From an uncultured Planctomycetales bacterium (GTDB lineage: Bacteria > Omnitrophota > Gorgyraeia > Zapsychrales > JANLHA01): DNA of 64,000 nt. The stretch covers positions 2,177 to 66,176 of the forward strand of contig CAYJXI010000006.1 in assembly GCA_964374105.1 (NCBI GenBank), in the 5' to 3' direction. This document shows positions 4,153-4,935 of this stretch, one piece after another. The position numbers were made by a program, and so were the translations under genes. Every line of letters starts with the position of its first letter. The stretch's first letter is position 1. Below the pieces are notes generated by a model. That model was not told the DNA's origin. It made no database searches and was given only the letters and a program-made list of their open reading frames with translations.

Positions 4153-4935
4153 ATGACCACAATATCGACAATCTTACCAGATGCAGATTCAATTTTAGCT
4201 CTTGAACCAGAAGAATTGGCTGGATATCTTTTAGAGTATCTGAATTCTCTTCCCGAACAAGAGAGAAGACACCTCAATAGATATAATTTTAGTTTAGAAT
4301 ATAATTTTTCGGATTATCCTCAAGGGCTCCGAGAAGATATTTTAAAAGTATTCATGGAGGCATGGTGTTGGCTTGAGCGAGAAGGATTAATTGCACCTAA
4401 ACCGGGCCAGCAAGGTGAATGGGTTTTTATTACAAGACGAGGACAAAAATTAAAAAATCATCAAGACTTAGAAGCTTTCCGGAAGGCCAATTTATTACCA
4501 CGTCAATTACTTCACCCAATTATTGCTCAAGAAGTCTGGTCTGCCTTTATTCGAGGAAAATATGATACTGCAGTCTTTCAGGCTTTTAAAGAAGTCGAAG
4601 TAGCAGTACGAAATGCTGGTTGTTTTACAGCAACCGATTACGGTGTCCCACTTATGCGTAAAGCATTCGATGAAAATTCTGGTCCCCTAACTGATCAATC
4701 TTTACCTTTACCTGAACGGCAAGCAATGGCCCATCTTTTTGCGAGGGCAATTGGTCTTTATAAAAATCCATCAAGTCATCGACATATCTGCATAAAAGAT
4801 CCAGCCGAGGCAGTTGAGATAGTCAGTTTGGCAAGTCACTTAATGCGAATAATCGATTCACGAGTTGAAAATAAGGCCTCAGAAAAAGACGGGAATCCGT
4901 GGAATCCGGGGGACCCACGCCGAAATCCAAATTAA
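4153..4935 (+). CDS. Ymh/TIGR02391-type (HEPN-superfamily, abortive-infection-associated) domain protein with an uncharacterised N-terminal region. The likely start is the ATG at 4153; the six-frame ORF opens at 4033 inside repeat B
   Basis: HPIIAQEVWSAFIRGKYDTAVFQAFKEVEVAVRNAG plus YKNPSSHRHICIKDPAEAVEIVSLASHLMRIID matches the Hypoth_Ymh pattern (AVfeAfKavEvavR ... RNPxxH ... eAxexlxLaSxLlR). A strong SD (GAGGGAGG) lies upstream of 4153. Confidence 0.55.
   Translation: MTTISTILPDADSILALEPEELAGYLLEYLNSLPEQERRHLNRYNFSLEYNFSDYPQGLREDILKVFMEAWCWLEREGLIAPKPGQQGEWVFITRRGQKLKNHQDLEAFRKANLLPRQLLHPIIAQEVWSAFIRGKYDTAVFQAFKEVEVAVRNAGCFTATDYGVPLMRKAFDENSGPLTDQSLPLPERQAMAHLFARAIGLYKNPSSHRHICIKDPAEAVEIVSLASHLMRIIDSRVENKASEKDGNPWNPGDPRRNPN

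Follow-up and report, generated by a model that had tools for sequence, protein, structure and literature searches.

The question raised by this locus is whether the gene at 4153-4935 of the window, the 64,000-nucleotide stretch of DNA analysed here, encodes an anti-phage effector that works by itself. A sequence-only reading had described its product as a Ymh-type, HEPN-like C-terminal domain on an uncharacterised N-terminal domain, and had proposed a candidate abortive-infection effector lodged in a cassette array. We find that the protein belongs, intact, to a very large family that has been annotated and never studied, not to a new kind of system. That the ORF is a toxin or anti-phage effector acting as a single gene is a reasonable proposal, as yet unproven. 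The relevant features are collected in Table 1.

The gene and its ends

The ORF is full length, without frameshift or internal stop, and as read from the window sequence it runs from an ATG at 4153 to a stop at 4933-4935, giving a product of 260 aa. This start was favoured because of the Shine-Dalgarno-like GAGGGAGGA at 4136-4144 and the family alignment; a longer start, TTG at 4033, found no support in that alignment. With start and stop codons, Shine-Dalgarno and family alignment all in agreement, the gene proposed earlier is real, and an identical 260-aa protein was present in three independent assemblies or samples. No strong sigma-70 promoter was found upstream of the ORF, and an Rfam scan of 600-6000 at E<=1 returned nothing.

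Two features depart from the family. Residue 198, which is Gly in 96% of representatives, is Arg in the window protein and sits in helix 3, near the KNPSSH motif; apart from R198, every conserved residue in the family alignment is intact. At the other end, homologues normally stop 15-20 residues earlier, at about query residue 237-245, and the length of the C-terminal tail varies between them. The earlier claim that the 3' end derives from a repeat copy was confirmed, since repeat B (4890-4961) takes in the stop and the ~14 codons before it. The window gene is an ordinary TIGR02391/Ymh member, slightly atypical through G198R and its repeat-derived tail.

Table 1. Positions, in window coordinates, of the Ymh gene, its domains and motifs, and neighbouring elements
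Feature	Position	Strand	Basis or remark
Complete ORF, two-domain TIGR02391/Ymh family protein	4153..4935	+	260 aa + stop
Shine-Dalgarno-like GAGGGAGGA	4136..4144	+	8 nt 5' of ATG; read directly from sequence
N-terminal domain, residues 1-115, winged-helix-like (predicted)	4153..4497	+	AF2, Foldseek, HMM
Ymh (PF09509/TIGR02391) domain, residues 120-234	4510..4854	+	Pfam, NCBIfam, AF2
E149-V-A-V-R153, HEPN Ex3[KR] acidic motif, helix 2	4597..4611	+	Motif definition PMC3710099
Codon AGG = R198	4744..4746	+	Protein-specific substitution; Gly in 96% of representatives (LFAGAIG)
K204-N-P-S-S-H209-R210, HEPN Rx4H-type motif, Lys for Arg	4762..4782	+	Alignment
C-terminal tail, residues 241-260 + stop	4873..4935	+	Foreign to family; last ~14 codons within repeat B
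MNT-type nucleotidyltransferase, N-terminal HTH (neighbour)	2738..3322	+	Pfam Polbeta, NTP_transf_2; PADLOC PDC-M05A E=9e-54
HEPN (UPF0332/PF05168) partner of MNT (neighbour)	3300..3908	+	Pfam; PADLOC PDC-M05A/B pair
Repeat A copy 2	3985..4082	+	Upstream of Ymh ORF; two hairpins
Repeat B copy 2	4890..4961	+	Overlaps Ymh ORF 3' end

The C-terminal Ymh domain and its lysine-containing motif

The Hypoth_Ymh signature had been recognised from the sequence in the C-terminal half, and the strings AVFQAFKEVEVAVR, YKNPSSHRH and EAVEIVSLASHLMRIID were all found there. Both of the family matches predicted for this region were obtained. Pfam PF09509 (Hypoth_Ymh) matched residues 120-234 at E=1.6e-22 and 80 bits (cutoff 25), over model positions 3-119 of 119, and NCBIfam TIGR02391 scored E=7.6e-15 and 55.1 bits (cutoff 39.45), over model positions 1-122 of 125. 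With both scores above the curated cutoffs and near-full coverage of the models, the protein belongs to PF09509 and TIGR02391. In the AF2 model (pLDDT 83), the domain is predicted to consist of helices 122-133, 137-156, 186-204 and 217-246, with a short helix (164-171) in the insert at 157-185. This predicted layout agrees with the topology of the HEPN superfamily. Ymh has been placed there as a clade that conserves an Rx4-6H motif and is found fused to N-terminal domains of the Abi type (PMC3710099). The assignment of the domain to HEPN thus accords with the literature, and the window protein shares its helix layout and motif positions with the TIGR02391/PF09509 Ymh clade described there.

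Within helix 137-156, the acidic Ex3[KR] motif of HEPN proteins is present as E149-x3-R153, with E149 found in 99% and R153 in 97% of 151 subfamily representatives. In the Rx4H-type motif, the position of the arginine is occupied by K204, at the end of helix 186-204; the four-residue spacing, N205 and H209 all fit the motif, and loop 206-210 is modelled at low confidence. The presence of Lys at the predicted catalytic Arg, already noted from the sequence, was borne out by alignment with the R of RNxxAH, which occurs in 120/120 other Ymh proteins sampled. It is not a local lesion, however, but the norm of the subfamily: position 204 is K in 132 of the 151 representatives (87%) and R in 14, these being the sole residues seen at the site. 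Other Ymh proteins carry RNPxAH, whereas the window subfamily carries KNPxSHR. Residue 204 covaries with residue 208, K occurring with S in 126 cases and R with A or G in 10 of 14. N205 (94%), H209 (97%) and R210 (96%) are conserved, such that E149, R153, E188, N205, H209 and R210 each reach 94-99% among the 151 representatives, and E188, N205 and H209 are invariant in both the K-type and the R-type subfamilies. Judged from these alignments, the motif site is under selection. The idea that R210 stands in for the missing Arg204 was rejected, because R210 is retained whether residue 204 is K or R.

We further compared the domain with established HEPN proteins. By hhalign, the Ymh C-domain profiles matched a UPF0332 HEPN profile, built from homologues of the neighbouring gene at 3300..3908, with a probability of 0.2-0.3%, which gives no support to a relationship. 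Foldseek of the window protein model against the PDB returned nothing under E=0.5, with RnlA (6y2p_B) at E=1.7, and the BFVD fold search returned nothing significant, with a phage RNaseLS-like protein at E=1.0. RnlA/LsoA (RNase LS) were the only HEPN structures in the fold searches and are likewise multi-domain proteins with a C-terminal HEPN RNase, but their matches are not significant, RnlA requires the RnlB antitoxin, and the N-terminal domains are others. A PDB sequence-profile search with full-length and mixed K-type/R-type Ymh-domain profiles gave no real match and no solved structure, and none of the PADLOC-DB v2 models matched the window protein at E<=0.01; PHROGs had no match to it either. 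In the searchable literature we came across no experimental report on any Ymh protein, only two comparative-genomics papers of 2012 and 2013. This is a large, essentially unstudied family for which we found no structure, biochemistry or defence-catalogue entry. Among the observations that run against viewing the protein as an RNase effector, the canonical catalytic Arg is Lys, no PADLOC model matches, and our own profile and fold comparisons gave no significant link with HEPN proteins that are well established.

The N-terminal domain and the spread of the family

The N-terminal half had been described as lacking a recognisable family. Residues 1-115 gave no Pfam match even at E<=10, and none of the NCBIfam, PADLOC or PHROGs models matched them, in keeping with that description. 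The AF2 model of the isolated domain (pLDDT 88.7, pTM 0.83) predicts a helical fold in which a beta-hairpin wing, made of strands 80-82 and 90-93, comes after the long helix 57-76. The best Foldseek matches in the PDB were almost all winged-helix proteins (SSV1 F-93, MarR-like, Stn1, Rio2), none of them significant; SSV1 F-93 ranked best (E=0.05, prob 0.98), and TM-scores among the top matches were 0.43-0.53. By its model, the domain looks like a winged helix. It carries the conserved motifs LEPEELAG, LNRYNF, MEAWxWLEREGL and TRRG.

The domain is not peculiar to the window gene, but is kept together with Ymh in thousands of homologues at 45-70% identity. Its HMM matched K-type Ymh proteins only, and 0/120 of the AbiTii-Ymh and other Ymh proteins. 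The two-domain architecture defines a family of ~240 aa with 3412 clusters at 50% identity, present in at least 448 GTDB species genomes from many bacterial and some archaeal phyla. There were 2727 homologues, the best 120 of which are 58-71% identical over ~90% of the length, and the closest genome match was an Omnitrophota MAG at 68% identity. Family members also occur on 35 plasmids, and gp29 of the temperate Burkholderia phage KS9 is one of them, in a moron-like position. The family moves horizontally among bacteria, archaea, plasmids and a phage. RefSeq already lists full-length homologues as "TIGR02391 family protein". At 45-70% between phyla, sequence identity exceeds what fast-evolving toxins usually show, a point against the toxin reading.

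Elsewhere, the Ymh domain is joined to other N-terminal modules, among them AbiTii and an Hsp70 fragment. The AbiTii-Ymh fusions recovered in the present searches confirm that Ymh occurs at the C-termini of Abi-type proteins, as the sequence-only reading had stated, and previous studies linked Ymh both to R-M operons and to Abi N-terminal domains (PMC3710099; PMC3506569). Going by domain composition, the combination of Ymh with varied N-terminal modules is the usual sensor-plus-effector pattern. AbiTii-Ymh (PF18864 + PF09509) resembles the window protein in that the N-terminal module varies and a Ymh domain of ~115 residues forms the C-terminus, with E188, N205 and H209 invariant there as in the window subfamily. 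In contrast, its N-terminal domain is unrelated (0/120 by HMM), its motif has Arg, and its length is ~305 aa as against ~240 aa. The Ymh partners listed in PMC3710099 (pMORC, AbiJ-NTD1/2, AbiTii) do not include the N-terminal domain of the window subfamily.

Gene neighbourhoods and candidate functions

Partners of the family were sought by all-against-all clustering of ORFs of >=60 aa within +/-5 kb of 85 loci. There was no conserved partner gene: no neighbour family occurred in more than 8/85 loci, and the recurrence in those 8 reflected synteny between related genomes. Scans of the 148 immediate neighbours gave matches to 174 Pfam and 139 PADLOC families, none of them dominant, and nucleotidyltransferases were missing from the top neighbour families; in the 85 loci, the family does not show the pairing of a HEPN toxin with an adjacent MNT antitoxin. 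The contexts are heterogeneous and include a BREX-like island, the toxin-antitoxin genes ParE and MazE, SMODS/SLATT, Type I methylases, TIR, Schlafen/AlbA and some genes of mobile elements. Nevertheless, defence or mobile genes are a minority of the 148, many being housekeeping genes (GlmU-like, sulfatase, CopD), and linkage to a Type I or N6 methylase was seen in about 4. In 2-3 independent loci and no more, a DUF2513 gene lies tightly upstream of the homologue, with a gap of 9-24 nt. KS9 gp30, unrelated to DUF2513, overlaps the upstream side of gp29 by 8 nt. Both were ruled out as general partners, given the few loci and the lack of relationship between the two. For annotation the message is modest: a "TIGR02391 family protein" of such architecture may be described as a solo protein, winged-helix-like and Ymh-HEPN.

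The most likely function, to which we give a probability of about 45%, is that of a HEPN RNase that needs no partner and is gated by a sensor of its own, acting as a toxin or in abortive infection. An abortive-infection role is plausible from the domain type and the context. The C-terminal Ymh-type HEPN is the predicted effector, a metal-independent RNase whose candidate active site would comprise H209, the residues K204 and N205 where helix 3 ends, the acidic E149 of the Ex3R motif in helix 2, and the invariant E188. Sensing or regulation is the predicted part of the winged-helix-like N-terminal domain. If it works as other HEPN enzymes do, the protein would be inactive in normal cells until the N-terminal domain senses a trigger, which may be a nucleic acid or protein of phage or other foreign origin, or the loss of a neighbouring immunity function. 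Two HEPN sites would then be joined through dimerisation or rearrangement, and cutting of cellular and/or phage RNA would halt translation and growth, with abortive infection or toxicity as the outcome.

Known systems offer partial parallels for such an effector. The anticodon nucleases PrrC/RloC and the paraMORC-Ymh proteins in R-M operons likewise combine a HEPN RNase effector with a regulatory module and stay silent until phage interference, and some homologues of the window protein adjoin Type I/N6 methylases; however, the window family lacks an ATPase module, is much smaller, and has few methylase-linked loci. BxaP of Akkermansia is a lone DUF4145-type HEPN protein from BREX/R-M loci that is protective by itself, probably through abortive infection (PMC10799925). 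It too is a single HEPN-superfamily protein, and one homologue of the window protein also lies inside a BREX-like locus, but BxaP belongs to the DUF4145 family, has its HEPN at the N-terminus and a HEAT-like partner domain, and has been tested experimentally, whereas the window family is known from sequence. If the window family is an active RNase, the catalytic repertoire of HEPN would gain a variant in which Lys stands for Arg and, coupled to this, Ser for Ala, and one more compact single-gene effector would join the anti-phage or toxin systems. A bolder proposition, which we hold tentatively and find on balance doubtful, is that the ~240-aa combination of winged-helix-like N-terminal domain and K-type Ymh forms an unrecognised, very widespread single-gene abortive-infection or toxin system, gated by its N-terminal domain as a sensor, acting through a Lys-His (KNPxSH) site where Arg-His is canonical, and absent from current defence catalogues.

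It is unlikely, though less so than the other alternatives, that the family is instead a non-catalytic derivative of HEPN, in which the Lys variant has no RNase activity and the protein is a regulator that binds nucleic acid or a ligand. The winged-helix-like domain could sit on DNA or RNA and the HEPN-like bundle could serve for dimerisation or ligand binding, as in a transcription factor or in an RNA-binding protein with a housekeeping role. In 87% of the subfamily, Lys replaces the Arg on which the activity of PrrC and of the KEN domain depends. Some HEPN families have lost the motif and serve as binding domains, and variant motifs are also accepted within HEPN (PMC3710099). The modelled resemblance of the N-terminal domain to winged-helix DNA-binding proteins, the unusually high conservation across phyla and the numerous housekeeping neighbours point the same way. 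On the other hand, H209, N205, E188 and E149/R153 are almost invariant, and the covariation of 204 with 208 is what is expected of a maintained catalytic site and not of a relaxed one. The patchy, mobile distribution, on plasmids, at a phage moron position and in defence islands, is unlike that of a housekeeping factor, and a dedicated regulator would be expected next to a conserved target gene or operon, of which the 85 loci showed none.

Whatever the family does, the window copy could be a decaying, possibly non-functional allele in a degraded island, which we regard as quite improbable. Its sequence suggests that it may be impaired through G198R and the odd tail: R198 replaces a 96%-conserved Gly in helix 3 near the motif, and the C-terminus extends into a repeat, ~15-20 residues beyond the point where family members stop. 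The neighbours are damaged as well (a split HEPN gene, an Mrr_N-only ORF and a HicA-like frame with an internal stop). Yet neither a frameshift nor an internal stop breaks the full-length ORF, its remaining conserved residues are intact, the identical protein occurs in three independent samples, and tail lengths differ among homologues anyway.

The Ymh gene does directly follow an MNT/HEPN pair (2738..3322 and 3300..3908), as was originally reported, and this lends itself to a reading of the Ymh protein as the toxin of a two-part module. Its antitoxin would be the upstream MNT, following the type VII HepT/MntA logic, or an adjacent small protein or RNA. From the MNT gene to the Ymh ORF the distance is 830 bp, and an insert of ~135 bp at ~3390-3524 interrupts the HEPN gene paired with that MNT; the structured repeat A is directly upstream of the Ymh ORF, and small upstream genes are tightly linked to some homologues (DUF2513 at 9-24 nt, KS9 gp30 with its 8-nt overlap). 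We judge this arrangement very unlikely. Once the insert is taken out, the HEPN at 3300..3908 matches undamaged HEPN proteins of 154 aa across 98-100% of their length, and the MNT belongs to this HEPN partner of its own, now disrupted, and is outside the system of the Ymh protein. HepT is placed by the literature in the same superfamily and is a small helical toxin, as the Ymh protein may be, here in the same island (2738..3908), but the window family has no conserved MNT, no detectable profile similarity to UPF0332, and an additional N-terminal domain. No neighbour family of >=60 aa passes 8/85 loci, those 8 being due to synteny, and nucleotidyltransferases are missing from the top families. 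The DUF2513 link is confined to 2-3 independent loci, and DUF2513 has no relationship to KS9 gp30. The single other copy of repeat A adjoins unrelated genes, and Rfam has no matches across 600-6000.

Repeats A and B each have one further copy in the window. Copy 1 of repeat A lies at 775-870, upstream of ORF 878..1411. The two copies of A share 84% identity, with nhmmer E-values of 8e-31 and 4e-29, and fold as DNA with z-scores of -2.6 and -1.7. Copy 1 of repeat B lies at 2556-2624, just past the stop of ORF 1935..2561, and is ~80% identical to its copy 2; B is unstructured (z=+0.7 and -0.2). The view of the locus as an integron-like cassette array found little support, since the two repeats are unrelated and occur twice each, B forms no hairpin and a weak, single-query test detected no recombinase; in the 64-kb window, neither attC sites nor an array of them was found. 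That the Ymh gene is a promoterless integron-type cassette, captured site-specifically with A and B as recombination sites, has the slimmest chance of all, even though A precedes and B follows two gene sets (A-three ORFs-B at 775-2624 and A-Ymh-B at 3985-4961) with a toxin-antitoxin pair between them, the small genes all point the same way and, as chromosomal integron arrays do, include several that are toxin-antitoxin-like, and the Ymh ORF lacks a strong upstream sigma-70 promoter: with only two copies per repeat in 64 kb, A unrelated to B, B without secondary structure and A forming two local hairpins in place of one long imperfect attC-like stem, no tyrosine recombinase detected in the window (by tblastn with one query, a weak test), no copies of either repeat found in JGI metagenomes, and the gene in unrelated contexts at 85 other loci, there is little to recommend it. 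Elsewhere in the neighbourhood, the Mrr_N-only ORF is without a nuclease domain, and the HicA-like reading frame is interrupted by an internal stop.

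Family assignment and spread of the Ymh protein

The Ymh ORF is preceded by a ribosome-binding site (GAGGGAGGA) 8 nt 5' of its start. A Ymh/TIGR02391 domain had been claimed for the C-terminal half of its product, and this was indeed found: Pfam PF09509 (Hypoth_Ymh) matched residues 120-234 over nearly the full model (E=1.6e-22; 80 bits, cutoff 25), as did NCBIfam TIGR02391 (E=7.6e-15; 55.1 bits, cutoff 39.45). Every sequence string cited in the sequence-only reading was present in the product, and the observation is real, well past chance. Judged by the family's own criteria, the product is a TIGR02391/PF09509 member. 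Residues 1-115 gave no Pfam match even at E<=10, and the whole product had no match in PADLOC or PHROGs.

Homologues numbered 2727 in a search of 5.8 billion proteins; the 120 best were 235-290 aa long and shared 58-71% identity over ~90% of the query, including the N-terminal domain. When 1.84 billion cluster representatives were scanned exhaustively with HMMER, 3412 clusters matched at E<=1e-3, 669 of them at E<=1e-30; nearly all of the top 150 (~240 aa) matched over the full length. Pattern scanning of GTDB, with each species represented by a single genome, confirmed 448 carriers. They included Omnitrophota, Binatia, Chloroflexota, Myxococcota, Acidobacteriota, Nitrospirota, Poribacteria, Latescibacterota, Patescibacteria, Firmicutes and Gammaproteobacteria among bacteria, and Methanococcoides, Methanoregula and one Nanohalarchaeota MAG among archaea. 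Members also occur on 35 plasmids, and gp29 of the temperate Burkholderia phage KS9 is a homologue (42% identity over 90% of the length); RefSeq labels the plasmid and KS9 homologues "TIGR02391 family protein". The claim that the N-terminal domain lacks a known family held. It is conserved across the homologues, those of plasmids and KS9 included, and so is uncharacterised yet not unique. The patchy distribution combined with high identity points to horizontal transfer. Sequence comparison places the product in a distinct, very populous subfamily marked by a KNPxSHR motif and an N-terminal domain of its own. No description of this K-type subfamily (Lys at position 204) was found in the literature searched, and it is a good, cheap target for experiments.

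Predicted structure and the Lys204 motif

With the family alignments as input, AlphaFold2 gave a confident model of the whole product (pLDDT 83) and of the N-terminal domain alone (pLDDT 88.7, pTM 0.83). Residues 1-112 are predicted to be helical; a long helix (57-76) precedes a beta-hairpin (80-82, 90-93), and the motifs LEPEELAG, LNRYNF, MEAWxWLEREGL and TRRG are conserved. Foldseek neighbours of this domain in the PDB were nearly all winged-helix proteins, none significant, and the matches included SSV1 F-93 (E=0.05, prob 0.98), MarR-like proteins, Stn1 and Rio2. We tentatively describe the modelled domain as winged-helix-like.

The C-terminal domain (residues 118-246) was modelled with helices 122-133, 137-156, 186-204 and 217-246; the second and third are separated by an insert that contains a short helix (164-171). 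This predicted layout agrees with that described for HEPN proteins, whose core of four helices has an insert separating helices 2 and 3, and whose helix 2 carries an acidic Ex3[KR] motif (Anantharaman et al., PMC3710099). The Ymh entry of this 2013 classification lists the HEPN motif Rx4-6H as "conserved: yes" (PMC3710099). Alignment of the Ymh profile with the canonical UPF0332/PF05168 HEPN profile by hhalign gave a probability of 0.3%, Foldseek against PDB and BFVD returned only non-significant RnlA/RNase LS matches, and a sequence search of the PDB found zero related entries. Since these searches added no support, HEPN membership is only probable, on the basis of the 2013 classification, the pattern of motifs and the modelled topology.

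Among 151 representatives, E149 and R153 of the E149-x3-R153 motif were 99% and 97% conserved, and N205 and H209 of K204-N205-P-S-S-H209 were 94% and 97% conserved. Position 204 was Lys in 132 and Arg in 14, with other residues almost absent; K204 was paired with Ser208 in 126 cases, and R204 with Ala or Gly208 in 10 of the 14. Other Ymh subfamilies, sampled via a search with a Hymenobacter plasmid protein and including AbiTii-Ymh and Hsp70-fragment-Ymh fusions, had RNxxAH in 120/120 proteins, and the N-terminal domain HMM matched none of these 120 R-type (Arg204) proteins. E188, N205 and H209 were invariant in both types. The sequence-only reading thus correctly placed Lys where RNxxAH has its catalytic Arg, but this is no local oddity. 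Lys204 is a signature of the subfamily, coupled to a second change and tied to the K-type N-terminal domain; because it is subfamily-wide, coupled to position 208 and tied to that domain, the pattern argues for a maintained site over a decayed one. Arg210 was rejected as a stand-in for the missing Arg204, as it is kept with K204 and with R204.

By analogy, we give a probability of about 0.45 to the product being an autonomous sensor-plus-effector protein, an RNase toxin or abortive-infection protein. The Ymh domain would be a metal-independent RNase, held inactive by default and switched on, probably via dimerisation as in other HEPN enzymes, when the N-terminal domain detects a trigger; the activated protein would cleave RNA and cause growth arrest. 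We infer the RNase activity, the trigger and the phenotype. The product most resembles the Abi-type proteins AbiTii-Ymh, AbiJ and BxaP, which join a variable N-domain to HEPN, and is unlike MNT-HEPN toxin-antitoxin pairs. BxaP, a single DUF4145-HEPN protein of BREX and R-M loci, protects alone (PMC10799925) and is a precedent for a solo protective HEPN protein. It is rather unlikely that the Lys204 protein is instead a non-catalytic binding or regulatory protein.

The local neighbourhood

The Ymh ORF lies within a series of small genes, all in the same orientation (see table). The MNT/HEPN pair proposed upstream, a nucleotidyltransferase gene and a UPF0332 HEPN gene, was recognised by PADLOC. 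When the 135-bp insert was removed, the HEPN ORF matched intact 154-aa UPF0332 HEPN proteins over 98-100% of their length. Folding of the insert as DNA gave three strong hairpins (z=-8.2); the insert may also carry a 5-bp duplication (TAATC), has no Rfam match, and looks like a MITE or PATE. Downstream of the Ymh ORF, a HicB-like ORF and a HicA-like frame (…KFLL*VGCEFVRQKGSHRIYQ…) with an in-frame TAG are probably a decayed HicAB pair. The Mrr_N-only ORF and the ORF6N/KilA-N-like fragment appear as more signs of a degraded island.

Features of the window
Feature	Position (strand)	Description
Repeat A	775-870; 3985-4082	Precedes ORF 878.. and Ymh ORF; 84% identity
ORF with RusA (Holliday-junction resolvase) match	1330-1905	Partial, E=1e-9; within first A-B unit
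Repeat B	2556-2624; 4890-4961	3' of ORF 1935..2561; overlaps last ~14 codons of Ymh ORF; ~80% identity
MNT gene	2738..3322 (+)	PADLOC candidate system PDC-M05A/B with partner
HEPN gene, partner of MNT	3300..3908 (+)	PADLOC PDC-M05A/B; interrupted by insert
135-bp insert	~3390-3524	Splits HEPN gene; one copy in window
Ymh ORF	4153..4935 (+)	260 codons + stop; frame unbroken
100-aa ORF	5209-5511	No family match; HicB-like by eye
HicA-like frame	~5499-5650	Recognised by eye, not by HMM
Mrr_N ORF	5940-6362	Pfam Mrr_N, E=5e-22; nuclease domain absent
ORF6N/KilA-N-like fragment	6359-6577	Short; by eye; after Mrr_N ORF
250-nt direct repeat	9773-10022; 14268-14517	99% identity; 4.5 kb apart; flanks ORFs 10609..12843 and 13052..14125
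Repeat-containing ORF	14477..15847	Tandem 72/144-nt coding repeats at 14577-15678
Giant ORF	15856..25971	3371 aa; next after ORF 14477..15847
c-di-GMP-I riboswitch aptamer	45256-45346 (+)	Directly upstream of ORF 45543..46604

The local Ymh gene could itself be decaying, which is compatible with the other readings. Its neighbours are damaged, R198 replaces a Gly kept in 96% of the family, and the product has 15-20 more C-terminal residues than the family because repeat B overlaps its 3' end, as had been proposed. The identical protein was, however, found in three independent samples, and we consider decay unlikely. The ORF is an ordinary, slightly atypical copy, with nothing that a specialist would find surprising.

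Homologue loci, repeats and other features

No neighbouring ORF family recurred in more than 8 of 85 homologue loci, and the 8-locus recurrence was synteny among related Poribacteria-type genomes. The 148 immediate neighbours carried 174 Pfam families, most often N6_Mtase, TIR_2 and CopD (4 each) and DUF932 (3), followed by integrase, HsdM_N, Schlafen/AlbA and HNH (2 each); PADLOC matches included mad2, Type I methylases, bSEFIR and HamB. One homologue lies within a BREX-like locus (MmeI/Eco57I-type methylase, PglZ, DUF2513, TumE), and others adjoin ParE, MazE with IS110, SMODS/SLATT or Schlafen-AlbA genes. On Skermanella plasmid pTT6-4 the Ymh gene sits between recombinases with MqsRA nearby, and on a Rhizobium plasmid it adjoins a ThiF/MPN module and helicases. 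Tightly linked upstream genes were mutually unrelated (DUF2513, DEAD helicase, Ser/Thr kinase, sulfatase, GlmU-like, WD40, TIR-TPR, DUF932). From the 85 loci, the neighbour Pfam and PADLOC scans and the individual contexts, we therefore conclude that the Ymh gene is a solo unit whose neighbourhood is frequently, though not invariably, one of defence or mobile genes. It is improbable that the gene supplies the toxin to a two-part toxin-antitoxin module that has so far gone unrecognised.

In the BREX-like island a DUF2513 gene is directly upstream of the Ymh gene (9-24 nt gap), and DUF2513 is near it in one more locus (positions 7534-7977 of homologue locus L012 and 6329-6691 of L048); DUF2513 and Ymh may form an occasional two-gene variant. 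KS9 gp29 is half of a two-gene unit near the genome end, opposite in orientation to its immediate downstream neighbour; a DNA methyltransferase and the lysis cassette lie next to the unit, whose position is moron-like. The upstream gp30 (123 aa, no Pfam match) overlaps gp29 by 8 nt (pair at KS9 positions 332-1457), and gp29/gp30 offers a tractable natural system to probe the function of the two-domain family.

Repeats A and B bracket two units on either side of the MNT/HEPN pair, A-three ORFs-B and A-Ymh-B, and the region had been called a cassette array. An integron cassette is very improbable: A and B are unrelated, each has just two copies in the window and none in JGI metagenomes, B is unstructured, A forms two local hairpins only, Rfam gave no matches for them and a single-query search of the window detected no recombinase. 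The repeats do not look like attC sites, unlike those of an integron array, and the cassette-array description was dropped. The RusA match hints at a phage-derived origin of the first bracketed unit.

Elsewhere in the window, the tandem repeats of ORF 14477..15847 (motif like YYENGKL...G.F.dG) resemble the MORN/YwqK type, and the c-di-GMP-I aptamer scored 37.6 bits against an Rfam gathering threshold of 35.
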